This document shows positions 1,062 through 48,178 of a stretch of 61,326 bases of DNA, in pieces. Below the pieces are notes generated by a model. That model was given only the letters and a program-made list of their open reading frames with translations. It was not told where the DNA came from and made no database searches. A program made the translations under genes and the position numbers. Origin of the DNA: Psammoneis japonica (lineage: Eukaryota); NCBI GenBank assembly GCA_008632985.1, contig QPGO01000209.1, positions 62,001 to 123,326 of the forward strand, in the 5' to 3' direction. Numbering within the stretch: the stretch's first letter is position 1; each line of letters opens with the position of its first letter.

Positions 1062-1102
1062 ATTCTTTCAATGTCTCCACAATGGCGAGCAATTCTCTCT
1101 CC

Positions 1103-1498
1103 GACGTGTTCCAGCTCTGGGTGGGACCTCGCACTGCTGAACTGTGACACAATTGTTTTTTTTCATCCGTCGCATGTTTTGCGCGCACATTTCTGACTGT
1201 TCCATCATGAAAAATTGTTCCACACTGCCTGTTTTGCGAAGCCAAAGGCTTTCTGTCATCTGCACTTGTGTCAACAAAAATGCGCTGGGCATGTTCTTTA
1301 ATGTCTGAAGAATGTGCCCGGGCACACTGCAAAGAATGTGCTTCAAGTGTGGAGGAGGAGATGCGTTCGCAAAATTGCCTCTTTTTCTGTTGGCGATCAT
1401 TCACACATCCATTGCTTGACAATTTTACTGCGGAGCTCGCACGCAGAAATCTGCGGGCCTGATGTCACAAAAAGTCCCACCCAGGACTGGAACCCGTC
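1103..1498. mobile_element. Second 396-bp MITE of the same family, 4-bp TSD CTCC
   Basis: Same TIRs; ctcc at 1099-1102 and 1499-1502; removing it restores TTE-RELLAIV. Confidence 0.92.
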
Positions 1499-1688
1499 CT
1501 CCGTTGTTGCACAATTTAATTGCGCACTGTTGAGCTTTCTGCCACAAAAGGCGACAGGTTTGTTGTCTTGGGATGTGACTGCTCCCAATTGACATTTAGA
1601 GGCATCGGTGTGCACCTCAAAGGATTCATTAAAATCAGGATGTGATGATAAAACATCATCTGACATTGCCCGTTTAACGGTTTTGAAT

Positions 1689-1792
1689 GCCTCGTCTTCA
1701 ACGGACGTCCACTCCCACTTGACAGTCTCGCTTGCGAGTCGCCTCGTCTTCAACGGACGTCCACTCCCACTTGACAGTCTCGCTTGCGAGTC
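1689..1792. repeat. Perfect 52-bp tandem duplication in Gypsy pol
   Basis: gcctcgtcttcaacggacgtccactcccacttgacagtctcgcttgcgagtc occurs at 1689-1740 and 1741-1792, shifting the frame. Confidence 0.95.
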
Positions 1793-2974
1793 GTGTCAGC
1801 GGAGCCAAGACTTCAGAACGTCCAATCCACGGGTCACGGCAGCAGTTGACCATGCCAACAAATGACCGCAGGTCGCGTTCATTGGTTGGGGTCGCGATTT
1901 GCTTAATGGCGTCAACTTTATCAGGCATTGGTCGTGTTCCGTCTCTGTTGACCAGGCAACCCAAGCACTCCAATTGGGTTTGACAGAAGTGAGATTTGGC
2001 TGTGTTAACTTTTAGTCCTGCTTTCTGGACCCTCAACAAAACTTCTTCAAGTTTGTTGAGATGATCTTCATGGGTGCCTTTCGTCAAGACGAGAAGGTCA
2101 TCTAAGTGCGTTCAAACAAACGACAGATCTTCAAACAAGCCTGACATGCGTTCTTGGAAAATGTCTGGCGAATTGCATGACCCCATGGGCAATGCCTGCA
2201 TCTCACACTTGCCCCACGGGAAGATGAGCATGCAGAGCTTCTTGCTGTCAGCATCCAATCGGATGTGACAACAGCCCGTGTTTAAATCCAGCGATGCAGC
2301 CCACACAAAGCCTTTGAGCTTGAGCAGCACATCTTGGACATGAGGAATCGGATGAGGCAATCGCTTGATCCATTTGTTCAGCTCTCTGAAATCATTGACA
2401 AAGCGCACCATTGAGTCTTTCTTTGGCACGACAAATGATGGAGCTGCCCATTGGGATCGGCCAACGCATTTGAGAACACCGATGCGCGCCAGGCATTCTA
2501 CTTCTTTACGCAGCGCAGCTTCGCACACACGAGGTGCTTTACACGGACGAGCGTGGTGTGGTTCTGCACCCTCCTTGAGTTGGACATGGCAGGGTTCTCC
2601 CTTCCATTCTCCCAATGTCCCATCAAATGAGGACTCATGGCGTTTCAACAGTGCCAAAAGGTCGTTTTGTTGAACTGCAGAAAGTCCCATTGCTCCTCGC
2701 ATCATGTCTTCGAGGCAGGCCGGCGCGTGCTTGGCGTCTGAAATGCGTGAAATCCAGTTGGTTTCCGAAGACAAGGCTTCTGGATCTTGAAGATAGAAGG
2801 GGGTTTCTGCCGCAGCATCTGGGTGCCTCATTGGCGCTTCTCCATTGACCAATGGCCACTCTGTCATCTGTTTGGAGAAGACAATGTCAATGCCTTGTGT
2901 CTCCAGAATGTCACGTCCAACAATCATGTCGCACTTGCCCAACTTTCCGTTGTGTGCGTGGACGGCATGTTTAA

Positions 2975-3508
2975 GGTAATCGCAGAACGAAGGGGCAAAG
3001 GCACGACAATTTGATTTTTCAGGATTTTCTGCTGCACGAGAAACGCGCAGCGCGCTGCGCGCCTCGTCGCCAACAATCGGCGACGTGACGGTGGTGCGTT
3101 GTCGCAACGACAGAGATGACAGCGACGTGTCCCAGCGTCTTTTGTCGTTGTGGACATTTAGTTTGTCATGTTTAAGAATGCATTCAGTCATGAAAGTCCC
3201 CGCGAGCAACCTCCATTAGAGCGCAAAACGTCATGCCAATGAGGAGCTCTGTTTTTCGACCGTCGTTTTATGCATTCGATTGTCAAACGATTGTGAGTTC
3301 GTCCGGGGGACTTTCTTTGCATGCATGTGTTCTGCATGGTGCAATTGATCAATGTGTTAAGTGCCCATCGCAAATTGTCCTCCATCAGCATCTGAAAATT
3401 GTCATCGTCATCGTCGGTGTCGACGACAATTTGTCGCGCAAATCGCAAAAAATGCACGGCAGTCGTCTGTCTGACATTGCGCTGCTGTGCGCTCGTTGTG
3501 CGCATGCC
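2975..3508. mobile_element. 534-bp non-autonomous TIR element, GG...CC termini, TTAA target (Kolobok-like)
   Basis: Flanks ttaa (2971-2974) and tcaa (3509-3512); removing it restores the protease-region frame ELSKTAEL-KHAVH; inverted homologue at 30884-31417. Confidence 0.85.
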
Positions 3509-3870
3509 TCAAGTTCTGCAGTTTTGGACAATTCTGGCAACCGAATTTTAATGGCACAGTCGTTGGACGTGCTGAACGAGCCTGCCACCGCAGTCCAGTT
3601 TGTCTCAGCCGTTGAACGGCTTTGCAGATGCTTGCAGTGTCAACTGTCGAGCAGAGTGCTGCTGGCGCCACCATCTGGTGGTGCCTCAATGGTTTGAGTC
3701 TTGCCCTTGCCATGTTTGGTGTTCACAGCCACAAACAAGATTGGAGCAAGATGAGTCTTTTTAACTTGTTTGCGGGATTGGCCTGCAACACGTGTACGAT
3801 GGTAATTCAGTTGTTCATTCACACATTCATCTGGTGCATTAAAACTGCCTGCATTGTGTCGGACCCCTTC

Positions 3871-5016
3871 TCAGGTGTCCGAATCTTTGGAATCACTCAA
3901 GTTGAGGTCGCGGAAGTGATTGAGCTCCTCCTTGCGTGCCTTGCGCTTTTTCTGAGCGTTGGCAAAGAACTCCTTGACCTTCGATCCGATGAGAGCATCA
4001 ATGTCTTCCTCATTCCAAGGTTTTGCATCAGGCTTGCTGCCTCCGTCATTGGAATGTCCAGTCTTGACACATTTCACGTGGTGCTTGAGCTGACAGCAAT
4101 CCTCCGCATGATGTCCACAGTCAGTCCCGTGTGGCATGCACGACTTCTGGGTGTTCCGTTGGGTCGTGATCAACGACTCAGGATTGTCCGTTCTACGTCC
4201 CCGCTTGCGTGGAACCTGAGCATGTTGGTCCAGGTTACCTTTGGCAAGCTCGACCTGCTCGATGCGCTCGCAGAACTGTACAAATTCGGCGATGGCATGC
4301 GCCAACAGGTCAAAATTCTGTAACGTCATGAACTTCTGCCATGCGTTTGGCACACCGCACTCGAACATGTCGCACAGTTCGTCATTGGGTGATGGTGCCA
4401 GTGCTTCTCCATCCTCCGTCACGGGTGGAAACTGAGAGACATGGCCGTTAATTTCAACAGCCCTCGCGACGCAGTCACGAGTGGAAACCTCTGCGGGCTT
4501 GCGCATGAAGCACCTCAGATGACGCTTCTGCAACAGCACCGCCCCATGTGGGAAGATGCTTTCCTTTAGCTTCGCGACGCACACTGCGTGCGTGGCATTG
4601 GTTTCAGATGCCTGCATGTCAGCGGCATTGTTGAATGACGTCAGAGCATCGCCCTGCAGCAGGTCACGCACAAGGGCAAATTTCGCTGGCCCGGTCGTCA
4701 TGTTTTGTCCTTCGTGCACGCGATCCACGTTGCGCAGAAAGATCAGGAGTGTCTCGCATGTAGCCGCAGAAAGGTGCGGGATGCCCATCTCATGCGTTGG
4801 ACCATCCGGATCAGTGGGGTTGTTGTGCAGTTTGAACGTCTGGTGCTCGCCCTGCTGTGGCTCTTTCTTCTCCGGCCGTGCGAATGGAATCGGTGGCTTA
4901 ATCCGCTTCTTCATGGTCGTTTTGAGATTTGTCGGTCCTGCCAACATTTCGTAGTTTCGTTTCTGCAGATTTCGTTGCCTCGCACAATGTGCGGGAGTGA
5001 CATTGCTGTGCCCCAT
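3871..5016 (-). pseudogene. Gypsy gag, open but Tyr-depleted
   Basis: 381-aa ORF with PIPF..TFKL..NP, LL.GDAL..F, QKR.LR.FMRKP and a CCHC-like remnant (CMPHG..CGHHAEDC); lies directly upstream of the protease. Confidence 0.85.
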
Positions 5017-29825: not shown

Positions 29826-30016
29826 TATTTTTGAAATCGGCAGTTGCTCTTCTTGTTGTCAATGTTTTTTGTGGCTCTATCGTCAAGCAGCAATGTTTTG
29901 TTTCCTCTTGCGTTTTCCCGACATACTTATGCTTTGTTTTCTGTTGCGGCGCCGCGTGAAATTCCTCCTATCGTGTCACAATCACGCCCAACAGAATTGC
30001 GAACTCCAATGATTTA

Positions 30017-30797
30017 GACCCGTCGTACTCGTGGAAATTGGGGTGTAATTCGGGGTGTAATTTGGGGGTGTAAAAACGCGCATCGCGCGAATTTACACCC
30101 CAAAATTACACCCATTTTTCGACGAGTACGAGAGTGTGAAACTTGGCATCTGTAATTCTGCGAGCAATGATATATACGTTGAATATATACTCCTGAAAAA
30201 ATGTTGATACCCAATCAGGAATAATACCATATATCCATTTTTAATCAACTTATCTGTACGCGAGGTTGAACATGCTATTGACTGCATCAAACCACCATGG
30301 CGTTCGGCGGCTCCGCTGCGACCTTACACATATCAAAACACTGTTCTGACAAGCCTAATCAATGTATAATAACGTGATTAATATTATGTGTTACTGCTGT
30401 ATCCATATCTAAGGTATCAGCAACCATATGACGTGTTTTTCTTCTGAAAAGGTATGGAGTTGCCATCATTTTGTTCTCCGTTGACTTCAATCTCATCGTT
30501 TTTCGCCGTTCTTTCTCTCATAAACACATCATAATAGCTCCCCAGCAACGATTTTTCACATCTCTTATTGACTGACGTTCGTTGTTGATTGTTGGTTGCC
30601 ATTGTTGTTCGACAATTCTGATGTTGTCTGCCGTCATGGACGATGATGAGTCTGTTTTCGTACGAAAAATTACAGGCTCGCAGAATTTTTTACAGGGAAA
30701 AAATACATGCCTCTGGCGGCCTATTTGTTGGCTGTAATTTTTTACACCCCAAAATTACACCCCGAATTACACCCCTCCGCCACGAGTACGACGGGTC
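30017..30797. mobile_element. 781-bp PIF/Harbinger-like MITE, TTA TSD, unmutated
   Basis: TIR gacccgtcgtactcgtgg plus subterminal ggggtgtaa x3; tta at 30014-30016 and 30798-30800; the paralogous site near 53985 is empty. Confidence 0.9.
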
Positions 30798-30883
30798 TTA
30801 GGGTGACGACTGCTGTACTCTCTAGCTAGGGCCCTAGACTGTGACTTGACACTTCCACTTTGTTTGGAGATTTCCTCTTTCAA

Positions 30884-31417
30884 GGCATGCGCACAACGAG
30901 CGCACAGCAGCGCAATGTCGGACAGACGACAGTCGTGCATTTGTTGTTGCGATTTGAGCGACAAATTGCCGTCGACTCCGACGATGACATTTTTCTCAAG
31001 CTCTGACAGGACGACTTTGCAATGGGCACTTGTCATGATGATCGACTGCACTGTTCAAAACACGAACGTGTGGACAAAGCTTCGCTCGCGAAGCCTCGGC
31101 AGTTCAACAATGAACGCACAACAGCGACAGGTCGGAAAACAGAGCTCGGCATTGGTGTGATGTTTTGCTTTTGAATGGAGGATGCTCTGGGGGACTTTCA
31201 TGACTGAGTGCATTCTCAAACTTGACAAACTGAGTGTCTGCAATGACAAAAGACTTTTGCACATCGCTGTCATTGCGCTGTCGCCATGACAACGCACCAC
31301 TGTTGTGTCACCGATTTTTGGCAATGATGCACTCACCAGCATGCACAAAGTTTCCAGTGCAAAAACGTTCAGAAAGTCCAATCATCTTGCCATCCATCAG
31401 CTTGTTGTGTGATTGCC
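30884..31417. mobile_element. 534-bp TTAA-target element, inverted homologue of 2975-3508
   Basis: Termini ggcatgcgcacaacga ... ttgttgtgtgattgcc; flanks tcaa (30880-30883) and ttga (31418-31421). Confidence 0.85.
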
Positions 31418-33477
31418 TTGAGGGCGGGTTGTTGTTTTGTGGTCGATTTTGTTTGGAGCTCGCATTTTTCCACAAAAACCCGGATTCCTCACACTGTGAA
31501 CCCTTTCAGTTTTCAGAAAAAGGCCAAACCACTTTGCCGCATTGCAAGTCAAAATCATGTGGTGAAAGCACAGTGAAAAGTTTGAGGGGTGGAGAACGTC
31601 CACATGAGCAATGCAAATGGTTTGACGTCACACCACTGTTGCTCTTGACACATGCAAACTTTGTGTGACTCGAAACTTTTGCTGGTGGAGATGTCAAATC
31701 AAAAATTTTGGACAACCCTTGTCTTGCCATTGCAAAGTTCAGTGAATTGCTTGCCAAAGCCATGCAGGTTGCCAGCAATTGTCAGCTGGAGATCATTGCG
31801 AATTGTCAAGCATGTCTGTTCAATGAGTTTGTGCAGTCAAGATGCGCCCCAGTGTAAAACAGGGCAGGAAATGGGTTGTCTCTTTCCTTTGTGCTTTTGC
31901 TGTGGTTTCCATTTTTTTAACACGGTGAAGTGCATGTGTGATTTTGCACCAAGCGCTGCAGCACGCTGTGGTTTGCTGACTGAAAGGGTTTGTTTGCGTG
32001 CTTGCCAAAAAAACTTTTCAGCAACAGGCCAAACTTTGTCTGATTGCAAGACAACATGGAGTGCACATGTGATGGTTGCAGACATGTGCAATCTGCAGCT
32101 TGATGACAGTGGATGTGGAAAGTCATGACTTGTCTGCTTCAAGGAGTCCAGTGTTGGGCAAAAATGGCGCTTTGTTGAACACAACAACCACACCAAAGTC
32201 AACAATTGGCATTTGAAGGTCAGTGGGTGTAGTTCACACAAAGATCCAACACAGCCCTGATGGGGTCTGGACACACTGTGTGTTTGGGGGTGCTCAGAGG
32301 CATCACAATGTGGCGCGTGGGTGAAGTGCGGGAAAATTTGAAAATCACAAGCCATTGAAAAAAAAACAAGTGTTTCATGTCAAAAGGAGAGTTTGCAATG
32401 TCTGAGATCATGTGGGGATGTTTCCTGGACTTCTGTGAGGTCATTCTTCAGTGCTGTCCCCCCCCCCAAGTGCAATTGGAAAAATCTGTGACCAGGCTCA
32501 GCCAAAACCTCTTGGATGACAAACTCCTCATGATCTTTGCCAAAGCTGTCACCAAAGCTGTGCACCCAAGCTGCTGGCACAGCTGTGCAAAACTTCTAAG
32601 CTGCTCCTCCAGCCCTGGCAAAATTTCCAGCTTTGCTGATGCCATGAGCAGCCAGAGAGCTTGAGCTGGGGCAGCACCAGCATCTTGAAAGCCCCCCACC
32701 CTGTGCAGCAGCACAACACTGCAAACAAAGGCCCAGCAAACAAAAGAGTTGCTGAATGTGCAAAAAACTTGCTCAGCATTGATGTGTTGAGAGGTGCACT
32801 TTGCCAGCTCAAACTGCAGAACCCAACAACACACATGCAGCAAGCTCTTGTTTTTGTGTTTTTCTGATCAGGGCCATTTGGCAATGACCATCACTGTGGC
32901 CCAAACATCAGGTGGCACAGAGCAACCCTGCTGACAATTTCTAGAATCCTGTTGACTGCTGCAACAACACTTTCCTGTCATGTTTTGTCAATTTCTCAGC
33001 AGCTGCAGCATGATTTGTTCACTTCATCAGAGCCACCAATGCTTCTCTTTGTTCTGTGGAGCCTTGAACAGGCAATGGTTCAGTGGCCATTTTCATCAAT
33101 TTTTGTGGCAAGTGTTGTGGATCCATGGTTGCTCACACAACTGTGACATTCACTGTGATCCAATGCAGCTGTGAGTGCAAACATGCTCATGCATTGGACC
33201 CGAGCAGTGCAACAGAAATTTGGTCATTGGAAATGTCTTGTGTGCATGTTCTGCACATGTGTGCCAAGATGTGTGGGGCATGCACAGGTGATGATTTTTA
33301 ATCCTGGTTGCTGTTTGCCATTGTGCATCTCCATTGTTGGCACTCTCACATTGAGCAATTCATGACCACAAAATCACTCATTTTCTCTCACTTTCTTTCT
33401 CACAGCACCACACTTGTGACACCATTGCGTCGCAACTGAAAAACATTCATTTTCACATTGCACGTGGCATTTTTGCC

Positions 33478-33660
33478 AAAAGCGAATAAACACTGATGCA
33501 GCCGCATGGGGTGATGACAGTGCCTTGAGCCTAAGAGCAGCAGTGACAAACCAAAGAGAATCCTGCTCCGATTGGATCGTGTGAGATTGTGGGAAAGAAC
33601 AAACCACCAGATCGTGTGCGTCAGCCCCGGACCAGGGACTGACCACTCCACCCAGATTCA
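33478..33660 (-). repeat. Copia 3' LTR
   Basis: Ungapped match to 39924-40106; starts TGAATCTGGG on the minus strand. Confidence 0.9.
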
Positions 33661-36600
33661 CTCGGTCCCCGCGAAACGGCAGTGACAACGCCGATTCGTC
33701 TAAACCCAGAACATCCTCTCATAGAGAGGCAAACACAAAACCCAAATTCAGACCACCAGCAATGCTGGCTTGGGAGGCCGAAACACGTGGGCGCGAGCCG
33801 CAGGTGTCTGGCCTTGGTGTCAGGACGCTGCCAAAAGACACAAGAGCAAAGTTTCCAACGCCGCTCTCCCGTCGTCACCTTCGTAAAAAAATCCGCCAAA
33901 TTCGTGTCCGTGTCCTCCTTCCCGACGCGAATGATGCCAGCCGCAACCGCTTCACGAACCACATGACAGTTGATGGCATTGTGCTTCTTGTGCAACACAG
34001 ATTCCAGAACACTGACATTCTTCACCACGCCGCGGTTGTCGCAAAACACATTGGCAGGGCCTTCAATCGGTGCTCCAAACATGCGAAGCTTGTAACGCAA
34101 AGCAACAATCAACTCCTTGCAAATGCGCATCGCAACCAATTCGCTGCCAAACGTCGCCGACTCCACTGTGTTCTGCCGCTTGCTAGACCAAGTGATCGGA
34201 GCATTGTTCACGAATGTCAAAATCCCGCCATGCGATCTGCGAGCAACAACGTTTCCCGCATGGTTAGCGTCAACAAATGCAGACACATTTACCGGGTTGC
34301 CACGGGGCTTGGGCATCCGTGGCGGCAACTCCTCCTCAACGTCCCCGTAAAACTCCGTCCAGTCCGCAGTGGAATTGAAAACAGATTCGTCAATCACAGG
34401 CATCTTCGGGTCAAAACCAATGCGACCGACATTCAAATGCTTCTTCACACACGCGAACACATGGTGCAATGCTTCGAGGTGCCCTTTCCTTGGGTTGGCT
34501 TGATGCTGAGAGAGAATGGAAACTTCATGCAAGACATCAACATGGCCCAACTCGATCGCCCAACGACAAATGCCAATCAACTGCAAATGCCTGTCTGCCA
34601 AATCAGGTCCCAACTCGTCCGTTACGTCTAATTCCGGCTTGCACTTGGAAGGCAGTGGGTCCCTCACATTGTTCTTCAAGACTGCTCCGTCACCGTCCTC
34701 TTCCAATGGCCCTTCCACCGTCTTGATCGCCGACTTGATGTGCGACTTCGGTGAGCTTGCCCAAATGGTGCGCCCATCCTCGGTCTGAACCTTCTCAACG
34801 TCGGCTCCAAGGCATGACGATGGCTCTCCTTCACTCCCAGGTTTGACAGTGGATGATTCACCCATGCTCTCGACAACAGATTTTCCTTGATGAGAAATGA
34901 TTAGAATGTCGTCAACATAAACCAAAAGCATTTCACAATGCTCATGCCCATCGTCGCGAGTCGCCGCACGAACACAAACGTCGGGATCCGCCTTTGTTGA
35001 TTCAAAACCCATGTTCCGTAAAACCGATGCCAATGCGGACCTCCAAGAGCATCCAGAGCTCTTCAAACCGTGCAGCGCTCGAGCCACAATTAGAACCTTG
35101 CCTTGGTGCTCTCCACATTCCCTGCCACCTTTGAACCAGATCTTCTCTGCACACGGGGCATTCAAATGCGCGTTCTCCAGGTCGACAGCCGTGATGTCCA
35201 CTCCATTCAATGCTGCCAGCAGGAATCCTAACCGCACGCTGTCCCTCGAAACAACACTTGAGCATGTGATCGATGACGGTGTTTCCGCAGCATGACCTCC
35301 TGCAACAAATCTGGCCTTCCCAGTGAAATCCATCTTGACGTCGAACACCAAATGACACCTGATCTCCTGACAACCACGCAAAGTTGCACTCTTGCCTTCC
35401 CGGACGACTTGAGGGGTTTCAGCTTCATGTTCGCGCCACGCTGCCTTGACCTTGTTCATCTCCTTGTCAATTGCGCGAGCCCAATGGTCCGTCCCCGTTT
35501 CCTGGTCAATCTTCAAAGCATCTTCTGTAGACTTGGGCAAACGCGTGCCGAACTTGTGGGCAGTGCGCCAATGTTTCTTCTTAACCTTTGAGATGATGCG
35601 ATTCCGCTCACGTAAAACATGCGTGACCCACCAAGCAAACACCGGTTCTTCAGCCAACCTGTTCGCAACAGCATGCTCAGCAACTTCAATTGGGTTAGAC
35701 TCCTTCAGATCCTTGAGTTTCACCCACGACGAGCTGCCGTCCTTCCATGCGACCAACAGGTTCCATCCTTTCGCAGTTGTCTTCTTATGTTCCTTCCCGT
35801 CAGCTGTCTGAACTGTTCCTTCCTGGATCGGCACAGCTTCGCCGGTCTTTTCGTGATCCTGCATCTCCTGCAAAATAGAACACTGGTTGCCTTTGCTGTC
35901 AACTTGAGCAAACATGTTCTCCGCGATCACATTGGCAGCATGCTTGTCTCTGGTGCCGTCTGTGTGTTCAATCTCGTGTTCGCGGGTGTCAAACAATGGA
36001 CTCTGATGCCGGGTTCCAATCGGTCGCCCATCCTGACCTCGTGCCCGCTTGACTGCGACTCCTCGCCGTTCAGCGTTAGTCCCAACATCAAACATAAGTT
36101 CCATTCCAAGACATTGATCAATTGCCTGTTCGTTGTCGTCCTCGGGTCGTTTTCCTGGCAATGACATGTCCCCGCATTCCTCATCGGTTGGTGTCACACC
36201 GCCTTCACATTCCACACTGGGGTTGCCGTCGATCGCCAAATCATCCAGTGCAAATGCTGGCACCGCTTCGTCGCCTTGTAAAACGAAATTGGTGTCATCT
36301 AACCGTGCCTCCAGTTGTTCGTTAAACTTGTCGACTTTCACACGAATGTCCGGCTGCACCATGTCGGCCTGCGTTACATGCTCGACCGAAGTCTTCGAAA
36401 CTGTCTTCCCGGATTCCGTGATGATCCAATGACACATGTCCGATCCGACCTTGTGAGATGTGCCAAGCCATCGTCCAAGCCTCCTCGGGTCATCTGTTGC
36501 ATTCGGCTTGTCGTGTCTGTCCCACCACCAGACCAGATCACAGAAACCGAAGTCCAAACATTCGCCCATTTCGGGTGTCTGACCAGTTACCTCTTCACAC

Positions 36601-38150
36601 CCAGTCCGTTTGTCACGGCCTCTTGCCATGCGAGATGCAAGTTCCGATTCACAAACTAGACCAAAATCCCACAATCGTTTCGGCACCTTCTTCCTCGTCA
36701 TCCGCAGGCGCCAACGCTTGGCCAAGAACCCGATCTCTCTTTCTGCTGCGTGATTCTGATTCTTGCAACCTTGTTCCATTGTCCTGAGTTGGATCCTCAT
36801 TCGACGTGCGTGTTTCACAAACTCGGCACTTCGTCCTGTGAACTCTCCAGCACCATCCGATGTGAGACATTCCGGCACTCCCACATCGTCTGTAAAGTCA
36901 ATGAGAGACAAACCTGCCTCCGACCTTGCGGTCATTGGCACAACCTTTACGAACTTGCCCTGAGCACAAACATTGGCACAAGTGTTGCCGAGCAAAGATT
37001 TCACCTTGGATGTTAATGTGTCCACAAACCATGTCCCTTTTAATCTTTTTCGATGCAGGTCCAAGTGATCCACCCTAACTCTCCTTGACATTGGTTGGGC
37101 CGCCGTCCGCACACCGCATTGTGCAGTTACATTGAGAGTGTCCTTAGCCGTTTCCAAGCCGACGTTCCACTTTCGTGCTAGCTCTTCAGCGTCGATCTTG
37201 GAGTGACGGTCCTCACTGCGCAACTCCTCAACAGATCTTGCTCTTTCGTCTGTGTCTGACCCACACGCGCAAGCTGCGTTGACCAAACTGATGAGCCTGT
37301 CACAAAAGGATTTAAGATGATAGACTGGAGACAATCGAGTGAGTTCAGCTTCAACCTCGCCCCATTGGACTGCTTGAGACTTGGCCCTGTCGCTCTTCAT
37401 TTCTGAAATCTGTTCCTGTCTCATGCCAGATGTCATCAAACGGATGGCACGGATCTCAGATTGCTCCCTTGTGCGCTGTGGTAAACCCATGTCGACTTCT
37501 GTTGGATTCCACACGTCTCCTTTCAGCAGCATCACTGGCAAGTTCTTCTCCTCCCAATCCGTCGGAACACGAGACTTGAAAGATGCAATTGTCCCCGTGG
37601 AATTGAAAGGTATGAAAGCTTCATCAGCTTCGATCCCAAACCCATTTCGAGTGTCGCAAGGGTTGTCGTGTACGGGCACATCACACGCTTGCAACTGATT
37701 GGGGTTCAACAATGAATGCTGCATGTCAGTTCCAAACCACAACATTTGGTCTCCAACCAGTGAGCACTCACGAGTCGTTTCCGGATCCGTCCATGCTGTG
37801 CAACAACGCGCCACAGGAATCTGTTTAACCGGCTCATGCGAATCTAGAAACGGGTGCACTTCACAGACTTCGTTCGTCAATTCCATGAGTTTCCAGTTGG
37901 CGCCAGCACAACAAGTGTCCGCATGAGTGTCACATTCGTTCCTCGCCATGAAGCCGGGTGTCGTTAAGTTCGTCATCGCGGTGGCAGTCGTTGACCTTGT
38001 CACACATTTCGAAGTCACAGCAACGCGCCTTTTTGTTACCTTCTCTTGCAAATGAAACATTGGGTGGGGTTTGGTTAACAACATGATGAGCAACATGAAT
38101 GCAAATGACATGTGCACCAAGTGTGCCAACGCTCCCGTAGTTGAAACCAC
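33621..38150 (-). pseudogene. Copia pol, uninterrupted 1509-aa ORF with pervasive missense change; ancestral stop probably at 33828-33830
   Basis: PR DTHADTCCAG; IN WFVDTL..SDGAGEF..NHAAEREI; RT KARFVAGG, DLENAHL, ALHGLKSSG, YVDD; RH FVDANHAG, ESATFGSE, CDN, NLADFFTK; only 4 Tyr. Confidence 0.92.
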
Positions 38151-38159
38151 CCCGATCAG

Positions 38160-39480
38160 TCAAGCATGACCTTGGTGGGCTCCTCGACCGAAAGCACGCC
38201 CATTTCTGCCACCACGATCACGGTCAGCTCCGCGACCGCAGCCACCGCCTTCACCTTGCGCTTGACCTTGCTGCTCTTGACCTTGACGGTCTTGAACCTG
38301 AGCTTTGGCTACTTGCCCATTGCCTCCGGCGCGTCCGCCTCTTCCTGCAGGGTTTCCTTGGCCACCGCGTCCGCGCATCCTTTCACGAGCCTGAAAAACA
38401 TAATTGAGACCTCCGTTAAAGCGCAACCTGTCCCATTCCTGGTCGGCAAATGTCCTCGCAGGATCCGATGCGTCGACTCCGTCAATCACAGTTGTGCGAT
38501 CACCGCCCCTTCCTTGATGTCCTCCGCATCCTCCACCGCAGCCAAATCCACCACCACGCCCACGACCGCCGTGATGGAAACCTCGGCCACCGCCGCCACC
38601 TCGGCTGACCTGAGAAATCTTGCGCTTCGCACAATGCCGGGCTTCCAACTGAGCACCTGCATGCAAACAAGAGACTTCGGATGAGAAACAAGCACACGCC
38701 CCCGCGAAGTCACGAGGGCACTGGTTGCCAATGACGGCCGCAGCCGCCACAAGACGGGCATCCTCCGATTTGATGCCCTTCTGCAACATTTCAACCTTCT
38801 GCCGAGCAGACATGCTTTCATCTGGAACCTCGTCCAAAGCAGCAAAGGCACTGGTGAGTTTCTCCGTGAATTTCTCAAACGCAAGTGCACCTTCCTTTTT
38901 GTAGAATGACGTTTCGATGTTGGCCTCAGCCAAATGAACTCGCTTGCTCAATTCGCCTTCGCCGTTGCAATGGTTGACCCAGGCCCAGAATGCTTCGCGT
39001 CCATTCTCTGTTGCGTCACATGAAACAAGTTCAAGAAATCGTCTTCACACACGTCAAAATCTTCCGCTTTGAATTTGGTGAGGCTGTCAACCATCGCAGT
39101 GGATTCCGTAAACTCCTTTTCAACACGCCTGCCGTCCCCAGCCGCCGCCATAGCTGCAATGTCAAAATTCGCCATGACCAGTGGCTGGTTCCGTTTCGTT
39201 AAATCTCTCAACCACCAAACCAACGCCTGCAAGTTCTTAATCTGCATCGTCCCCAGCGTCACGCGTCCATTGGCTGCTGTACGACGAGCCGCCCTTTGGG
39301 CTAGATCCTCAACATCGTGGTCTGTTTCCACAACAGCAACATTCTCAAGAGCAGCAAACCCTTCACAGAAAACAAGCCTCGCCCCAGCGTTCTGGTCAAC
39401 AACACCACAAACCTGCAATGCCGCGTCTGCATCAGCCACCGCGGCCAAAGCCGCAAGTGCCGCTGCTGGTGCCGCTGCCA
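38160..39480 (-). pseudogene. Copia gag, frameshifted or internally deleted near 38950-39020
   Basis: RTAANGRVTLG..IKNLQALVWW; FYKKEGALAFEKF; Gly/Arg-rich tail and NGVD-like DGVDASDP.RTF..EW. Confidence 0.85.
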
Positions 39481-39923
39481 TCCTGTGACAAGAGAAATGG
39501 AGGCAACAACCCATGCAATGGGTCGCAATTTGGTGTGAGTGCGCATGGCACAGGAGGCTTCACCGACCGGTGCTGTGACGACGGGTTCACGCAGCCAACC
39601 GACTTCGGGGTGATCAATTCCGTGTCGTTTCCATTGTGAGCACACGCTCGGGCATGCTGCCCAATGCCGCAGTCGCTCCACACCCGTTAACAACATGGAG
39701 ATGGTGACCATTTTGCGAGTGTTTTCCGTTGCAAGCTGTTTCCTTTGGTCGTCATACGCGACACAGAACACACGCTGCACGCGACAACCCCCTTTCGACG
39801 CTGCACGTACAAATCAGTACATTTTCTACAGCTGCTCGTTCCATGCACACAATCACAACAATCAACCGTTTACAACGAGTTGTTTCCTTGTCCGTTTCGT
39901 TCAGCTTTTCATCAATGGCTCTG

Positions 39924-40106
39924 AAAAGCGAACAAATGCCGATGCAGCCGCGTGGGGCAATGACAGCACCTTGAGCCTGAGAGCAGCAGTGATGGGCCAA
40001 AGAGAATCCCATTCCAATTAGATCGTGTGAGATTGTGGGAAAGAACAAACCACCAGATCGTGTGCGTCAGCCCTGGACCAGGGACTGACCGCTCCACCCA
40101 GATTCA
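39924..40106 (-). repeat. Copia 5' LTR
   Basis: Ungapped match to 33478-33660. Confidence 0.9.
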
Positions 40107-40399
40107 CTTGAAAGTTCTGCATTTTAATCCTCATGATGGATGTCAATCATTCCGCCAACTTTCACCTTTTTCTGCTTCCCCTCCAAAGCCCCTCCTTGCC
40201 AGAAAATCACAATGTTTCATTTGCACCATTCACCTGAGCAATCGTGTGTGGGGCATTTGTCCCTTCCACTTGTGATCTTTGGACCCAATCCCCATGTTTT
40301 TGGTGGGTCAGTGCAGAGCTGCAAAAGTGGTGTGACCAGCAGCCGCAGGATTCTGCGTCTGCTGTTCACACTGTGATTGCCCATGGTGGTTTGCCTCTC

Positions 40400-43300
40400 C
40401 CACCATTGCAACAATGCCCCGGCTCAAAGTCATGCCCAAGCAAAAGCAGTGTCTCTCTTCTTGCTCTGATGATTTGTTTGAGGATGACACCATGAAGTGC
40501 CGTGCACACCAAGAACCAGAATGGTTGCTGGAGCTGGCCCAGCTCTGACACTGAGTGGAGTCATCTCTATGATGCACACCCACATCGACCATGTTGACAA
40601 CATCCGAAACATCAGGAACAAGCTCAAATGTTCGTTCATCACACCAGAGACCTTTGCAGAGTGTCAGGCAGCCCTTCGTGCAGCTCAGTCTGAATGCAAG
40701 AGAATTGCGGTGGCAAGCATTGTGCATCAAGAGAACAAGACAGCAGAGAAGATTGCCGCGTTAGTGTTGGAAGGCACCAAGGCTTCCAAGCAGAAAGCTG
40801 CCATCTTACGAAATGTTTGGAAAGCCAAGGAGACCCAGAAGTTGTTTCAGAAGATCCAGTTTTGATCGTGACACAGGTGTCAACAGTGCACAAGTGCCCC
40901 GCAACCCTGAGGTGCATCCCAAAGAGTGTGAAGACTGGACTGTGATCAATGCCCCAGAAGATGTTGCTGCAGTGCTTTGACTTTGCAGTCAAAAACACTT
41001 TGGACAGGCTCACGGTGCTCCTCCTGCCCCCCCCCCCCCCTGTTGGTGGATCTTGGTTACATCGGCAACACAGTTTTTGCTGATCTTGTTCTCAATGGCG
41101 AGCATGACACTTCTCAACTAAATGAGGCAATGTCTTGATTTGTCCAACACCTTTGCCGCCGGTCTCCTGTCTCAGCATCCTCATTCCTTGCAGCGGATGA
41201 CTTAGAAGGCAAGATGAAATCTTGGACCAAGTCTGCATCCACTTCCATCAAGTCAGGACTTCATTTGGGCCGCTGGAAAGCCACGCATGCCACCCACTCT
41301 CAGTCCAACGCAACCACCCCAGAAGGTGATCCTACGGAAGACCGCAAGCCTCTCAATGCCACTCAAAGCACTCTCATTCAAATGAGATTGAACCTCTTGA
41401 ATTGTGCTCTCCATTGGGGGTGCTCTCATGACAGATGGAAAGATGTTGTTGATGTCATGATCTTCAAGGAGGCCAGGAACAACAAGATCCACCACTTGCA
41501 AGTCATTCACATCTACGAGGCAGACTTTCAATTAATCTCAAGTGTGATGTGGCGGTCCCTTGCTCACAATGTGGAACAACATAAACTCTACAATCCTGGG
41601 ACATGCGGAACTTGCTCCTTCCTGAATGCCAATGCCCCTGTGCACCTCAAGGAACTTGTGCTTGAAACAAGTCAAGTCTCCCAAAAAACTGCCATTCACA
41701 GCAATGACGACTGCACCTCCTGCTGTGGTTGCAACATTCTGGTGCCAGCAGCTCTGGAGAGTTGCAGCAACAGCATGCCAAAAGAAGTTGTTCAGACCGC
41801 AAATTGCACTCTTCAACAGGCACGCTGCTGGCTAAAAACTGCCATTGGTCTGTCCCAAGCGTCTCCCTCACATTCCTCTGACTCTCCCATTTACAGCACT
41901 GGTCAGGGCAGTGGCAATTCTCCTTTCCATTGGAACCAAATGTGCAACAGCCTTTTTGAGATTTTGACCAACACGCTCATGGAGCTCATTTTGAATCCCC
42001 AAATCATTTTGGTTTCCAGTGAGACATTTGACCGCGGACATGTCAATGACACCTTGAAGCAAGTTGGCATTTTCACTGCCTCCCCTCAACCCTCTGTGTG
42101 CTGGTCTTGGCTTTCAAAATGCAGGAGGACAGCCAGCTGTGGTGTGATCTTCTTCATGGTGCTGGCCACAAATTGGAACCACCCAAATGTTCACACCATG
42201 TCATCAAATGGCACTTCACTGAGGATGGTGAGCCGCACCTTGCTGCTTACAATGACAATGTCATCATTGATGTTTCCTCTGCCAATCAGTCACACTTGAG
42301 GTCCAGCATTCAGCTGTCTGCCTGCACGTCACACAAGACCCTTGGACACTTCAAGCCTCCAGCTGGAACACAGAAAACCCACTGCAAGGTTCTCAAGAAA
42401 CAGAGCAATGGCATTGCTCTCTTCCTTTGATCCTGCCCCCCTGGACAGAAAGGAAGCTTGGACGCACTGCTTGGCTTGCTGCTCAGTGTGCTTGACGTGC
42501 ACCCTCCTGAATTCCCATTTTGCTCTGAATGAACTTCTTGAGATCCAACAAAAAGCCATGCACACAACATTTGCCAAATGTGGATGCAATCAAAATGCCA
42601 AACAAGATGTCCTTTTTGGTCCTTGTGCACGGCGTTGGCCAAGCAGTGCAGTTCTTGTCTCATTGGTGTGGTGTCCACCAGCCAGCAACGTCATCTCACA
42701 TTGCAGTTTCATGGATGCAATTCCATCTTGGCACAGGCGTCAGCTTCCTGAAAGATGTTCATTCGAAGTTGCTTCACTCTGAGTCCAAATGGTTCATGTC
42801 ACTCCACTCGTTTTTTGTCCAGAGTGGATGCTCATTTTGATTTGGAAGACACATGCATGCTTCCTCTCCAGAGGGACAACAAGCAATGTGTCATGGATGT
42901 GGTTCTCAAATCAGGGACATTTTCTGACCAACAAATGCGCTGGGTGAATTGTTGTTGTCTGTACCTCAACGTCCTCACAATTTCCAATGTTGCCTTGCCA
43001 GATGGCTGGTTCTTGGATTGCCAAATGTCCCCAGCTGCACCCTCTGTTTTAGGCAGCTCATCCACGTTGAACCTGGTGGAACAAGCTCTCCCATCCTCAC
43101 GTGCCTGGAAACAGTGGCAGTGGTTTTGCAGCTTTGCAAGCAGAGGAAAAGACCTCAAGTCATGTGACCCATTGGGCTCCTGGGTTGTCCTGGCTGCTGA
43201 GATGCGGATGACATTCCCAGTGTGTTATGAACCTGATGAAGGCCACTCATGTGTGAGATCTCTGGATGGGTTTCAAGTGTTTCCCGTGATGCGTGGTGTC

Positions 43301-44950
43301 ACTCCTCACATTGATCCCCTCAAGACCATTCCTGCCTTTTCTCCCCTGGCATCACCTGTCATGGTCAACACCATTGAAGATGGTCGATGGTGAATCCAAA
43401 GCACCGGTGCCATGTTTGATCTTTCTCCCCCAACTCCAGTTCCTTCAGACTTTCTTGCATGGCTGCAGCCATTTTTGAACTGGCCGAGACTCTTCAGTTT
43501 CATTGTGCAACAGCAGCAAGCAATGGGTCAGTTGTTGGTTCCAATGCCACCTTTGGATGGACGCTTGCAATTGACGGAAATGTTCTCATTGATTGTGCAG
43601 GTCCAGTTTTTGGCTTTTGCCTGTCATCCCACCAAGCAGAGGCATGTGGGCCACTCTCCATCCTTCGATTCATTCTCAGGGCAATGGAATTCTGTCAAAC
43701 TCTCTTTCCGGGCTTGGACACACATCACAATGACTCTGCTGTTGTCTGCAACATGAGCAATCTCCTTCCTGTCCCCACATCTGCTGAAGACAATTCCACT
43801 GCGCAACATGACTGCTGCCGTTGATTTCACATGGCTGACACCATGTCAACTGATTGGGACGTGGTGAACAAAATTTTTCATTCAGTCCATTCTCTCCTGT
43901 CCAAGCCGTCATGCACCCAGGTCACATTTCATTGGATCAAGGGGCATCAAGATGACGCAGCTCCCTGTGAAACCCTGTCCCTTCTGGCACAGCTGAACAT
44001 TTGAGCGGATTTCATCGCAGGTCAACATCAAGGAAAACATCCTTGGTCTACATTGATTGCTCCCAGGGTGCCACACTGCCCCACCAACCTCATTGTTCAT
44101 GATGCCTTGGTGCACTCCAAGTGCAAACCAGTGCTCTGATGCAAAGCCTCAAGCCCAGCTGTTGTTGCACACATGAAAGAGAAGCATGCTTGGACAGACA
44201 AGGTCTTCCAGCTCATTGATTGGCAGGCACACTCCAAACTCATGTTGCCGAACATTGCCAGGAAAGTGAGCACAGTCAAACTGGTGCAAGATTTGTTGCC
44301 AACTGACAAGATTGTCCACCGTTGCAATCCTGTTTGACCTGATTGTTGCATCCATTGCCAACATCTGATGGAGGACAGAGATCACATTCTACATTGCCCC
44401 CACAATGAAGCATGGCACCACCCTTTCTTCAAGGATTGCAGAAGAAATGTGATGACATGCACACTTCCCCTCCCATGCAAGATGTTCTGATCATTGTGGT
44501 TGAAGCTTGGTTCTGTGAAGACATTGTCTGTGCCAACAAGCTCCACCACAGCATTTTGGAGATGTTCCATGCACAGAAACAAATTGGCTGGCAGCACATT
44601 TTCAATGGGCAATTCTCCACTTGTTGGAACAGAGCACACCTCATGCATTTACAAACAATCAAAAACTTAGACTGCAATGCCTCCAGAGTTGACTGGGCAG
44701 CTGCCATCTGCAGTTTCACATGGTCTCAATGGCAGGCATTGTGGGATCAACACAATGAAGCTGTTCATGGACAAGACGCAGAAACCAGTGAGTTGGCACA
44801 ACAGCATGATGCGGAGGCAGAAGTCAAGGCTGCACACTCCCATTCCAATGACTGCCTGGCCAAAGATTGAGCAACTGTGTGTGACTCTGTCAACAAACAT
44901 CTCACCCATTTGACTCATCACATTTAGATTTGGTTGGCAATTGTCCAACC
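40400..44950 (+). mobile_element. Degenerate non-LTR retrotransposon (RT plus RNase H plus C-terminal CCHC)
   Basis: SGLHLGRWKA, RWKDVVDVMIFKE..KIHHLQVIHIYEAD, GQGSGNSP, KLEPPKC, KTLGH; RNase H ASNGSV..FGW..SSHQAEACG, WIKGHQDD; terminal EDRDHILHC; many stops; ends approximate. Confidence 0.85.
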
Positions 44951-47900
44951 CATGTTTAAATCAGGCATTTGCAAGGCAAAACAACTGGCCTTGCACGGCA
45001 CTTGCACTGTTGCCAATCTTGGCTGATCGCTGTGTGCCCCTGCTGCACTCAAGTGCACTGGGGGTGTGGGCTGGCTTGTTTGCCAGAGTTGCAGGGTGGA
45101 AGTGCAGGAGCATCTTAAAAACAGATGTTTGTTTTTGTTTTTCTTTGAGGATGACACCAAATGTGAAACTGGCGCCATGATCTGCTTTGTCATGTCTCCT
45201 GACCACAATGGTTTGTTGCTTGATGTTTTGTCTCCCTCCAATGTGGCGGCAAGCCCCTCTGCTGACGTCAATCTTAGCTCTGATGACAACTCCGATGGCA
45301 ACAACTTGACCAGCCAAGGCAATTCTCATGCCAGGGCACCGTCTGCATCTGGAGACCTTGACGGCCATGCCAGTGATCTTTCTTTTCCCAATGAAGACAA
45401 CATGGACAACAATTTTTTAGACAGAAGCAATGGCTCTGTGCTGGACAACAAAGCTGAAGTGCACACCAACGGTGTTGGCAGTGCCTGCACAACCAAGGCT
45501 CAATTAAAAAAATCATTGAGATGCAGCGCCGCTGTCAGCACTTTCTTGAGACTTCTGAATGGACTCCCTCCCCTGACCTCATTGCTCTGCCCTTTGTTTG
45601 TTGCAACCACCAGAATCAAGCCTCCCGTTTCTTCATGGAAGTGTTGATGGTCAATGACACAGTTGCTCATTCTCTTGGCTGTGAAGATGGCTTTCATCAT
45701 GCAAAAGTTGTGGCTGGTTGTGTTTCCACCGCAAAGATGGGAGGTGTGTTCTGGAGCACCGCAAGCTGGCTGAAAGCTTTTCCAATCTTTCCCAATTCGG
45801 CAAAAATCTCCATGCAATCATTGACAATTTATGCAAGATGACAGTGCACGATTGACTTGGCAACATCCCTTGCTTCCTGCGGATCACCAGCTTCCATTCC
45901 AAGTTTAATTTTTTTGCGCAATGCCTGAGCATTGCGGCTGCCACAACGGACTGTTGCTTTCCACCTCACATTGACAAAGAGTGCGGCAATTTTTGACACT
46001 GGTCCACCATTGTTTTTTCTGGCTGCAAAAAAGAGAAAACAGTTTGTGCTGTCTTGCAATGATGTTTTGACCCTGATGAACACAGATGAGAAGGTGAAGG
46101 ATGGGAAGGTTGCCAAGACAATCCCAACCAAACATCTGGAATGTGTCAAGGCTTGCATTGACACTTGTGCCTTGGCAAAAGACAAGGCACAAAAACACCA
46201 AGAGTTGGTTGAACGTGAGCTCCACTCCACCTTCAAGCATTCCTGCAAGGACACAAACCATTTCAAGTTGCACAACCTGGCAATTGTGCAATCACGTGTC
46301 TGCAATCTCATGCATCCATGCCTTTCCCCGTGAAGCCAAGGCAAAGTTTGTCTCTTCCACCCAGAGGACAAAGAAAAGGAAGGAGTCCTCCACTGTGTTG
46401 GCTGGTTCTCTGGCACCTCCGCCCACTTCATTTGCCAAAGACATCAACCAGAATCCTGTTGCTCAGCCAACTGGCACCATGGCCGATGCCCCACCTGCCG
46501 CCAAATGCTCCATCAGTGCGCTTGCCTCCCAGTTGCAACCTTTGGCTGATGACATGGTTGAGTTGTTGTTGGATGGAGAGTCGTCATTGGCAGGTGAATT
46601 GTTGAACAATGAAGACCCCATTCAGAATGTCCCCAACACCTGTGTGGATGGTCCATCCACAGCAGTTGCTTCTGCTGCAGCATCAATCACATCAATGAGA
46701 TCCACAACCTCCTTGTCAATTGATGATTGGTTCCCCTGTGGTCATTGTTGCAGCTTTGCATCACCCGCTGATTCCTCAAGATGTGCTCCTTGCATTTGTG
46801 TTTTTTTATGATCTGGACAACGATGACAAGCACAATGAGGCTGTGGACCTGCAGCTGCCAACAACAGCTTTCAGCTCCATCTTGAAGTTTCCTTCTCTGT
46901 CTTGGTCAGTCCAAAGTGTGAGACTTGCGTGACATTCTCTGCACCACCAGCTTCCCAGGAATGCAGGTGATTGTCAAACATTGCTGCAAACACACCCCAT
47001 GGATTGCTGCCAAAGTCAACACCATCAAAGGCGTTTCACAGTGGATGCATTGTGCAAAGATGGGCAAGAAGGGCTGTTGCAAGCTTTTTTTGTCTCTCAA
47101 GACAATCATCCAGTGGACTGCCTGTGCTGACTGCAGCTGCGGAGACAGTGCATCCAAGTGCCAGCTTGTCAAGAGATGGGGCACAATCTCCACATTGGCT
47201 GGCAAGCAGGAAAGGCCCAGTTCATTGGTTGGACAGTTGGTGTTTGCAACATTGTTGGCAGAACACATGCAAAAACGGTGGACCCAACAGGGGTCACCCC
47301 CATTGTTTGCTTTCTGTCTGCAGACAAAGTCTTGTGACTTCCGGTCCCCAAATGTGGGCCCTCATGCAAGGAGGACGCGCATCTGCCGGCAAACACCACC
47401 AAGGCTTGCCATCATGTGGGGGGGTCTGCCTGCAAGGCCTTGAGATCTTCCAACAGAAAAGACAACATGTCATGGTGCGCCTGTGTGTTTGAGGGAGAAG
47501 ACTCCCCCCCGAATGGCCCTCGCTCACATTGTCATTCTCATCCAATGTGCCACTTGCACCCCCCTTGTCCAGGCTGAGGATGAACCCAAGGTGACGCCAA
47601 GCACAATCATGCTCCCGCACATGCCACTTGGCTTGAAGAATGCAAAACAACCAGGGCTTGAGAGGACCCCTTTGACAGGCATCAGCACCTGTCTGATCAG
47701 CGCACAAGCCAACAGGCAAGAGCAAGTCTTTCTCACAGTGAAAGTCCTCAGGGAGGTCATTGCATGTGTCAGAGCACCATTTGTTGGACATGATCTTGCC
47801 AAAATCATGGTCATCAACAGGAACAAACTTGTGGAAACGTGCATGGATGGACTGGCTGCTGTTGAGATTGTGCTCGTTGTCAAACATCGAGTGGGCAAGC

Positions 47901-48178
47901 AAATTTCTCAACATGTCCCGCATGTGGAAGCAAGTGACTTCCCGTCTGCCAATGATGCAAGTGTTGGGCTGGGGCAGGAAAACCTTCTTTCTGAGTTTTT
48001 TTGCCAACAAGTCTCAGCCAAGACACTGGGAACAATCAAACTTCCGCTTCTTGTGGGGTCATCACAAAAGGGAGAGCAGCTGCCTGAAAAATTGACGAGT
48101 GGCACCGGAATTGTCACACAGCGTGATCAGCTCCAGCAAAGCTTCCTCCTTGAGTGAAAAGGTTGGCAAATCATGTGC

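Follow-up and report, generated by a model that had tools for sequence, protein, structure and literature searches.

Probable in-place hypermutation of a Ty1/copia-type retrotransposon at TpA dinucleotides

The DNA analyzed here (the window) is a stretch of 61,326 nucleotides of contig QPGO01000209.1 (positions 62,001 to 123,326, forward strand). The feature under study lies on its minus strand and is very likely one Ty1/copia-type long terminal repeat (LTR) retrotransposon that has been hypermutated in place by a process acting on TpA dinucleotides, accompanied by a slower decay of CpG (coordinates of all features are collected in Table 1). It has the layout of an LTR retrotransposon, with direct repeats of 185–187 nucleotides (nt) 6446 nt apart and a total length of 6.6 kb. 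A repeat search returned one direct repeat pair within 32–42 kb (33478-33662 and 39924-40108, 185 nt, spacing 6446), which can be stretched to 187 nt (33478-33664 and 39924-40110); the resulting span of LTR similarity, 33478-40110, is wider than the element ends adopted in Table 1. The pol open reading frame (ORF) is uninterrupted and matches RVT_2, the copia-type reverse transcriptase family of Pfam (E=4.2e-15, 56.5 bits, cut-off 31.6). For integrase, no Pfam family reached E 0.1 in proteins P0001 or P0003, and a weak rve_3 match (E=0.056) lies upstream of the reverse transcriptase in the relative P0027. The gag-like ORF found no match in the Pfam scan; in its Gly/Arg-rich tail (38163-38500, minus strand) GGRG repeats are broken by Cys and His residues, which may be former Tyr codons.

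Relatives of the pol protein are numerous: of 7998 candidates that were scored, 1850 reach E<=1e-3, the closest being an unnamed metagenome protein with 71% identity and the only named ones two proteins of the diatom Fragilaria crotonensis (57–60% identity). The nearest known kind of element is presumably the CoDi-type Ty1/copia group of diatoms, which this one resembles in its RVT_2 domain, its identity to the F. crotonensis proteins, its length and its short LTRs. Unlike those elements, the present copy has lost 24–26 of 29 conserved tyrosines, and the tyrosine content of its pol ORF has fallen to 0.3% vs 2.9–3.2% in five relatives; the element is very probably dead although its frame is open.

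A contig assembled from a DNA sequencing run joins position 33472 to position 40111 with nine letters between them. Its depth of 114, about 3.5 times the ~32 of unique sequence, and a 4-nt indel indicate that it comes from a paralog, free of the insertion, of the older repeat in which the element sits. Comparison of this contig with the window suggests a target-site duplication whose two pentamers (AAAAG and GAAAG) differ by a single A>G change placed directly behind the last T of the LTR. The same pentamer also adjoins the other LTR inside the element and the assignment is therefore ambiguous and tentative.

Compared without gaps, the two LTRs differ at 21 nucleotides over 185 nt, all of them transitions; over 187 nt the count is 22 transitions, 0 transversions and 0 gaps. 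A preliminary description of this DNA, made from a 183-bp alignment, had reported 13 differing sites, no transversions and a concentration on pyrimidine–purine (YR) dinucleotides. The ungapped recount found it accurate and added a fourteenth site at the LTR edge (33663/40109, CG vs TG), these 14 sites accounting for all 22 differences. Its classes were likewise reproduced: three columns with TA facing CA or TG, five with CA facing TG, and six with CG facing CA or TG (five of them inside the 183 nt), besides three extra transitions (33549, 33550 and 33566) that fall outside YR dinucleotides and each touch a YR change. The other dinucleotide classes are TA/TA 0, CG/TA 0, CG/CG 5, CA/CA 13, and TG/TG 12. 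Dinucleotides of the YR type cover 88 of the 187 LTR positions but hold 19 of the 22 differences.

Duplicated segments of a host gene in the same window (83–88% identity, a divergence similar to that of the LTRs) provide an internal control. They differ by 920 substitutions, of which 549 are transitions and 371 transversions (ratio 1.4–1.6), and 296 of the 549 transitions stand in YR context (background 47%). The LTR pair departs from this spectrum both in its transitions and transversions (22:0 vs 549:371, Fisher p=2e-5) and in their context (19/22 vs 296/549, Fisher p=0.0035). A second repeat pair, formed by tandem copies of a miniature inverted-repeat transposable element (MITE)-like unit at 665-1061 and 1102-1498, has the same signature, with 31 transitions, 29 of them in YR context, and 4 transversions. 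The Kimura two-parameter distance between the LTRs is 0.134, although transversions (0, with a 95% upper bound of 1.6%) and indels (0) are absent and just 3 of the 99 non-YR positions differ; as had been anticipated, dating by LTR divergence overestimates age, and the insertion is much younger than that divergence suggests.

The two LTRs of a retrotransposon are copied from one template at integration, so that their differences arose afterwards. In a simple model both LTRs start with the same TpA sites, and every site has a probability p of being lost, separately in either copy and with TG and CA as equally likely products; the classes TA/TA, TA vs product and CA vs TG are then expected in the ratio (1-p)^2 : 2p(1-p) : p^2/2. 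The observed 0 : 3 : 5 give a maximum-likelihood p of 0.89 TpA lost per copy (confidence interval 0.70–0.97). Inside the element, 24 of 29 conserved Tyr codons have become His or Cys and 26 of 29 have changed, that is 0.83–0.90. Since the two estimates agree, no mutation before insertion is needed, and the proposal that the changes accumulated in place, within one element with a plausible 5-bp target duplication, is borne out. The LTRs differ only by YR transitions because each was hit independently.

The direction of change was read from two outgroups. At the protein level, pol was aligned with 15 relatives (47–64% identity) and a column was called conserved when at least 70% of them share a residue, which gave 842 columns; the element differs from them at 132, by a single nucleotide step at 97 and by several steps at 35. 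Where tyrosine is conserved (29 columns) the element has His (CAY) 13 times, Cys (TGY) 11 times, Tyr 3 times and another residue twice, whereas four relatives treated alike have no His or Cys at such columns. Conserved arginine is kept at 60 of 72 columns. Among the 97 single-step changes, 47 are TpA>TpG/CpA (28 A>G after T and 19 T>C before A), 14 are CpG>TpG/CpA (8 G>A after C and 6 C>T before G), and the rest comprise 14 other transitions and 22 transversions. In the coding region the reverse direction is seen once, as CA>CG, and TG>CG does not occur. Thr has been replaced by Ala eight times, in every case through ACN>GCN with a T just before the codon.

The second outgroup is at the DNA level. 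The MITE-like family (~390 bp, with terminal inverted repeats of ~25 nt) is represented by two unmutated and two mutated copies, and the comparison covers 179 alignable end columns, the outgroup state being that of both unmutated copies. Outgroup TA (18 copy-sites) appears in the mutated copies as TG 8, CA 6 and TA 4 times; outgroup CA or TG (34 copy-sites) is unchanged at 32 and became TA at 0; outgroup CG (36 copy-sites) remains CG at 21 and is TG at 4, CA at 2 and something else at 9. TpA-directed change thus marks 47/97 single-step changes, 24/29 Tyr columns and 14/18 outgroup-TA copy-sites, and both lines of evidence identify TpA as the source, CA/TG as the sink and CpG as a second, slower source. 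The preliminary description had not recognized TpA as the main source state or CA/TG as the sink. It had held that TA>CG double hits occur and leave the direction at CG sites ambiguous; neither statement survives, as no TA-vs-CG column exists in the 187-nt LTR comparison, none of the 29 conserved Tyr became Arg, and CpG>TpG/CpA outnumbers its reverse by 14 to 1 in the coding region and by 6 to 1 with the MITE outgroup.

The CpG decay runs at roughly one tenth of the rate of the TpA process. This matches the series of ages in the window, expressed as observed/expected ratios (o/e): in young elements (copia; gypsy at 1-5000) TA is lost (0.12–0.34) and CG kept (0.7–1.1), and in older tracts both are low (TA 0.00–0.16, CG 0.05–0.67), with CA/TG up to 1.9.

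Neither strand is favored, as the balance of 13 His and 11 Cys indicates. The TG/CA asymmetry of the element (0.10) and its GC skew (0.17) are within the range of 14 unmutated relatives; mutational strand bias as the cause of the GC-skew step at 34–40 kb is therefore ruled out in favor of ancestral composition. The bases flanking TpA have an influence. The element retains 67 TpA sites vs 298 expected from the tetranucleotide frequencies of the relatives, and survival depends on the flanks (chi-square 63, 9 degrees of freedom, p=3.5e-10), being low in ATAT (0.00), ATAC/GTAT (0.04), ATAA/TTAT (0.11), ATAG/CTAT (0.14), GTAC (0.18), and GTAG/CTAC (0.18) and higher in GTAA/TTAC (0.37), CTAA/TTAG (0.54), CTAG (0.55), and TTAA (0.86). 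These ratios are described well (residual deviance 3.1, 6 degrees of freedom) by an additive model in which each strand contributes a rate that depends on the base preceding the T: 2.07 for A, 0.97 for G, 0.40 for C and 0.09 for T. At Tyr sites of the ATAC/GTAT type, 13 changes hit the A that follows AT and 4 the A that follows GT, and all five surviving Tyr codons have a pyrimidine 5' of the TA. The gypsy element and the old tracts rank the bases before the T in the same way (A>G>C>T). No flank rule shared by CpG and TpA loss was found: TCGA is the CpG context most lost and GCGC the least. Because its rule differs, CpG loss is treated as a separate process, most simply deamination of 5-methylcytosine (5mC).

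These observations are very probably the work of a fast process that turns TpA into TpG or CpA (A:T>G:C) on both strands and has removed about nine tenths of the sites in LTRs and coding region alike. Each site is hit only once, the TG or CA product being no longer a target, and the rate follows the base before the T in the order A>G>C>T, so that ATAT is erased and TTAA nearly untouched. A process some tenfold slower converts CpG to TpG or CpA, most likely by ordinary deamination of 5mC, and both end at CA/TG. The fast chemistry is most likely adenine deamination in DNA (A to inosine, read as G); the enzyme would be a deaminase guided to foreign DNA that has been silenced, along the lines suggested for the alga Bigelowiella natans. 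The direction of change, its timing in place, strand symmetry, lack of double hits, flank rule, and regional restriction are observed at this locus.

B. natans offers the closest known case. In mutation-accumulation lines of that species, 231 mutations were recorded in integrated giant-virus and virophage regions, 230 of them A>G/T>C; the GC-biased changes all fell on TpA according to the authors, at ~6e-7 per site per generation (bioRxiv 10.64898/2026.01.13.699255). The same source reports coding sequences low in TpA that are enriched in reverse-transcriptase and DDE domains, proposes an ADAT2-like adenine deaminase, and gives 3.3% (giant-virus) and 9.2% (virophage) TpA still held by the viral inserts, with only 5% of 1-kb windows at Rho <=0.43 (bioRxiv 10.64898/2026.01.13.699255). 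The two cases share an A:T>G:C change confined to TpA that yields TpG or CpA depending on the strand, its restriction to foreign DNA with normal neighbors, and a long-term loss of TpA with gain of CpA and TpG. They differ in that the B. natans process was measured de novo in viral inserts, whereas here it is deduced from an LTR pair, approaches saturation (TA o/e 0.00–0.2) and extends over 44 of 61 kb, so that TpA-depleted DNA forms the majority of the window. The main text of the preprint makes no use of the terms LTR, CpG, flanking, or trinucleotide. A literature search found no other report of TpA-destroying hypermutation, and none in diatoms.

A different chemistry acting in the same place is the alternative that survives best, yet we regard it as unlikely: the T of TpA could carry an oxidative or some other modification (hydroxymethyl- or formyl-uracil type), pair wrongly with G and be replaced by C. 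TpA is palindromic, so that all the counts above can equally be read as T*>C with a T*-A-T preference, and modified pyrimidines at YpR exist in some protists. On the other side, the only study of the phenomenon proposes adenine deamination, and the window contains a single ORF for a 2-oxoglutarate/Fe(II)-dependent (2OG-Fe(II)) oxygenase (60573-61325), whose matches are limited to the families 2OG-FeII_Oxy_3 and 2OG-FeII_Oxy_4. A dinoflagellate origin, in which 5mC and hydroxymethyluracil would coexist, was considered and rejected: a search with 15 nt of the spliced leader gave 1 match with 2 mismatches, which 38 of 100 shuffled sequences equaled, and the relatives are diatom-type copia elements.

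It is very improbable that the LTRs were never identical, the element being a recombinant of two family members whose differences reflect divergence between copies. Related copies are plentiful (2416 contig pieces were placed on 30000-48000), but the flanking pentamers match save for one T|A>T|G change, and sites where related contigs differ from the window comprise 767 transitions and 178 transversions, against 0 transversions and 0 gaps in the 187 nt of the LTRs. Even if a recombinant were involved, the differences would still be limited to TpA and CpG and would report the same process.

Hypermutation of retroelements by editing enzymes is well known. ADAR and APOBEC act on RNA or on cDNA before integration, in a strand-asymmetric manner, and ADAR favors a 5' U. 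That the changes made here preceded integration, whether as A>I editing of the genomic RNA in the manner of ADAR or as an APOBEC-like attack on the cDNA, seems scarcely credible in spite of a shared character of deaminase-type transitions with neighbor preference and of the 5' U preference of ADAR, which the Discussion of the B. natans preprint also gives. Such editing leaves the LTRs identical, and here they differ at 22 positions; editing of sense RNA yields only TA>TG (Tyr>Cys), and here His and Cys are balanced; and the same signature is borne by DNA that is not of retroelement origin (MITE copies, old flanks). The target here is integrated DNA, struck equally on both strands.

Equally hard to sustain is a classical C>T-only process driven by methylation or resembling repeat-induced point mutation (RIP), with CG as the source and TA as the end product. 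All four YR states do occur among the LTR differences and the CpG decay is real; however, TA is the most depleted state (o/e down to 0.00), Tyr codons were lost rather than gained, none of the 34 outgroup CA/TG copy-sites turned into TA, the element is richer in G+C than its flanks (0.53 vs 0.48–0.49), and gene duplicates of 2.4–3.6 kb are untouched. An artefact of sequencing, base calling or assembly at modified bases can be set aside, for although the assembly may have been built from this same DNA run, the contigs of the run agree base for base with the window where its hypermutated sequence is unique (41027-44459, 3433 bases; 32279-33552; 31587-32306; and others) and the changes are coherent at the codon level, differ between the LTR copies and recur in an unrelated metagenome contig.

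Several points weigh against hypermutation in place as set out above. The confidence interval on the LTR estimate of 0.89 is wide, and the sample of paired copies consists of one LTR pair and one tandem pair. Three LTR transitions (33549, 33550, and 33566) are off-context, as is one member of the LTR terminal column under either reading of the element's ends, and the assignment of the target-site duplication is uncertain. The protein outgroups are distant (47–64%), so that polarity depends on the conserved columns and the 179 MITE columns; best metagenome loci are only 64–73% identical, and close DNA relatives for nucleotide polarity in the LTRs were not found among them. CpG loss looks higher in the LTRs (6/22 copy-sites) than internally (5/45 CGN Arg codons), not significantly (p=0.16). 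For the gypsy element and the old tracts the baseline of the flank rule is borrowed from the copia relatives. The DNA run may be the source of the assembly and is then not independent of it. Sequence data by themselves are silent on the enzyme, the base modification and the ongoing rate.

Table 1. Features of the window and the evidence for each.
Feature	Coordinates	Strand	Basis and remarks
Whole Ty1/copia-type LTR retrotransposon	33483..40109	-	LTR pair, RVT_2 match, relatives, paralogous empty-site contig; ends according to the target-site-duplication reading
5' LTR (element orientation)	39924..40110	-	Repeat comparison
3' LTR (element orientation)	33478..33664	-	Repeat comparison; pol ORF extends into it
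gag-like ORF, 294 aa	38163..39044	-	Arg/Gly-rich C-terminus; followed by in-frame TGA (38160-38162), then pol
pol ORF, 1512 aa, still open	33621..38159	-	RVT_2 domain; Tyr 0.3%
Putative target-site duplication, left copy AAAAG	33478..33482	+	Joined-flank contig vs window sequence; tentative
Putative target-site duplication, right copy GAAAG	40110..40114	+	One A>G vs left copy, at T|A junction
TpA-depleted tract holding the copia element	30501..47500	.	Older-repeat flanks: TA o/e 0.00–0.16, CG o/e 0.07–0.6
Gypsy-type element, off left edge	1..5000	-	RVT_1, RNase H, integrase zinc domain; TA o/e 0.14–0.34, CG 0.7–1.1, ORF Tyr 0–0.5%
MITE-like tandem copies	665-1061, 1102-1498	+	~390-bp unit, terminal inverted repeats, inside gypsy element; hypermutated
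MITE-like inverted pair	48179-48567, 48905-49294	+, -	96% identical, not hypermutated, TA-normal zone; DNA-level outgroup
Host NIDO/HYR gene segment	26377..29920	.	Copies at 50099-53687 (87.7%) and 7571-10202 (83–85%); ordinary spectrum, internal control

The signature is not confined to the copia element (Table 1). TA o/e is below 0.3 in 44 of the 61 1-kb windows and, across all 61, it rises with CG o/e (Spearman 0.81) and falls as CA/TG increases (-0.88). The copia element has TA o/e of 0.12–0.23 (0.18 overall), CG o/e of 0.85–1.03 and CA/TG of 1.40. Gene islands with TA o/e of 0.4–0.8 and edges sharp to ~0.5 kb lie at 7.5–10, 15.5–19.5, 26.5–30.5, 47.5–49, 50.5–53.5, and 60+ kb, and tyrosine makes up 3.0–5.8% of host ORFs and 0–0.8% of transposon ORFs. 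The duplicated host segments (2.4–3.6 kb, 83–88% identity) have kept 98 shared TpA, with 38 TA-vs-CA/TG columns. Repetition alone is not the trigger, since the gene duplicates keep their TpA and the 96% identical MITE pair is untouched. The process is aimed at a genomic compartment and spares gene islands, gene duplicates and the MITE pair.

Evidence from other genomes comes from metagenomes, in which a search of loci with the mutated protein alone found no relative and a search with the alignment found 77 loci. Of these copia loci, 70 are 1.5 kb or longer; their TA o/e has a median of 0.68 (range 0.53–0.90, except L005 at 0.26) and their CA/TG a median of 1.10. L005 (1590 nt) has Tyr>His/Cys in 13 of 15 columns, a second case being the protein P0030 (8/29), and the other 69 loci are unmutated. 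The flank rates of L005 are highest for A, then G, and agree with the rule for these two bases only (T 0.12, C 0.00). Since both L005 and P0030 carry the Tyr>His/Cys signature, the process also occurs elsewhere in nature, and L005 is more independent support than the DNA run, from which the assembly may have been made.

The host is very probably an organism other than B. natans. Two host ORFs (601 and 458 aa) have relatives of 27–38% identity, none above 38% in a collection of 5.8 billion proteins that includes NCBI and JGI; this, the long uninterrupted ORFs and the TpA-depleted majority of the window all argue for a different organism, as do the named copia relatives, which come from a diatom.

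RIP in ascomycetes is a genome defense that places dense transitions in transposons, makes TpA from CpA and is triggered by duplication (repeats over ~0.4 kb, 80% identity). The process described here is similar in that transitions fall on transposons in a dinucleotide context, degrade their coding capacity and inflate their divergence. It differs in polarity, for RIP makes TpA and this process destroys it; G+C rises rather than falls and stop codons are erased rather than created. Duplication alone is also no trigger here, as the ordinary transition/transversion ratio of the gene duplicates (1.4–1.6) and the unmutated MITE pair demonstrate. Ordinary RIP indices are the subject of a separate paper (PMC7884421), and diatoms, according to another, possess RID-like DNMT4 genes of unknown function (PMC9998398). 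As RID is linked to C>T, these genes are a lead only. Decay of CpG through 5mC corresponds to the second process in its direction (14 vs 1 reverse), in the fall of CG o/e to 0.05 in old tracts and in the depletion of TCGA above all; unlike the TpA process, it is the slower of the two, follows a flank rule of its own and cannot explain the loss of TpA, and methylation is here presumed. In basidiomycetes a TCG-biased CpG hypermutation of transposons has reportedly been observed.

The loss of TpA has consequences for annotation. TAA and TAG together number 16.5–20.3 per kb of strand in genes, 6.9 in the copia element and 1.5–2.2 in old tracts, and TGA stays at 20–26. The erasure of TAA and TAG explains why pol is still one open frame despite its loss of tyrosine and why both strands of the old tracts contain many overlapping ORFs of at least 150 aa. 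At 20890-22625 and 45027-48157 overlapping ORFs of 150–300 aa occupy several frames of both strands, and gene finders could call them; the old-tract ORFs scanned gave no Pfam match. In genomes of this kind, dating by LTR divergence is badly biased, homology searches for transposons fail as Tyr turns into His or Cys and codons for Ile, Val, and Thr shift, and dead DNA with long open frames on both strands may be predicted as genes.

The LTR pair amounts to a natural before-and-after experiment, indicating that a TpA process measured previously only on viral inserts in one alga also acts in place on retrotransposons. To a type of hypermutation described once (2026) it contributes a near-saturated retrotransposon case, a flank rule, the equal treatment of both strands, and a measure of how fast TpA and CpG are lost relative to each other; the flank rule can be checked against the published de novo mutations, and the enzyme responsible would be of interest as a DNA base editor. 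It is tempting, if tentative, to go further and to see here a second, unrelated eukaryotic lineage (the host of a diatom-type copia element) with a TpA-directed DNA-editing defense that covers the whole transposon compartment to near saturation and favors a purine at the second base upstream of the edited A (A>G>C>T). Were this so, the purine rule could help to identify the enzyme, TpA editing and CpG decay would together strip mobile DNA of TA and CG, and TpA editing would be a widespread eukaryotic genome defense with a polarity opposite to that of RIP, its enzyme a natural sequence-specific DNA adenine editor.

Some minor features of the window complete the picture. A diverged piece of the gypsy element lies at 30883-31330 (76% to 3061-3509). 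In the gag-like ORF of the gypsy element itself (3871-5082, minus strand) a sub-threshold match to the knottin family Toxin_35 (E=0.0016, 18.8 bits vs cut-off 26.8) is probably due to chance and does not indicate a toxin; raised Cys (3.2%) from Tyr>Cys and Arg>Cys perhaps favors it. Scans with Rfam and for tRNA genes gave no match in the window. One of the three NIDO/HYR segments is inverted, and the protein collection contains nothing closer to them than 38% identity. The partial 2OG-Fe(II) oxygenase ORF (minus strand) stands at the right edge, where TA o/e is back to 0.38, and nothing ties it to hypermutation. Short tandem duplications occur in an old tract at 56000-56224 (113 nt twice, 97%) and at 57107-57547 (~160-nt units, 72%).

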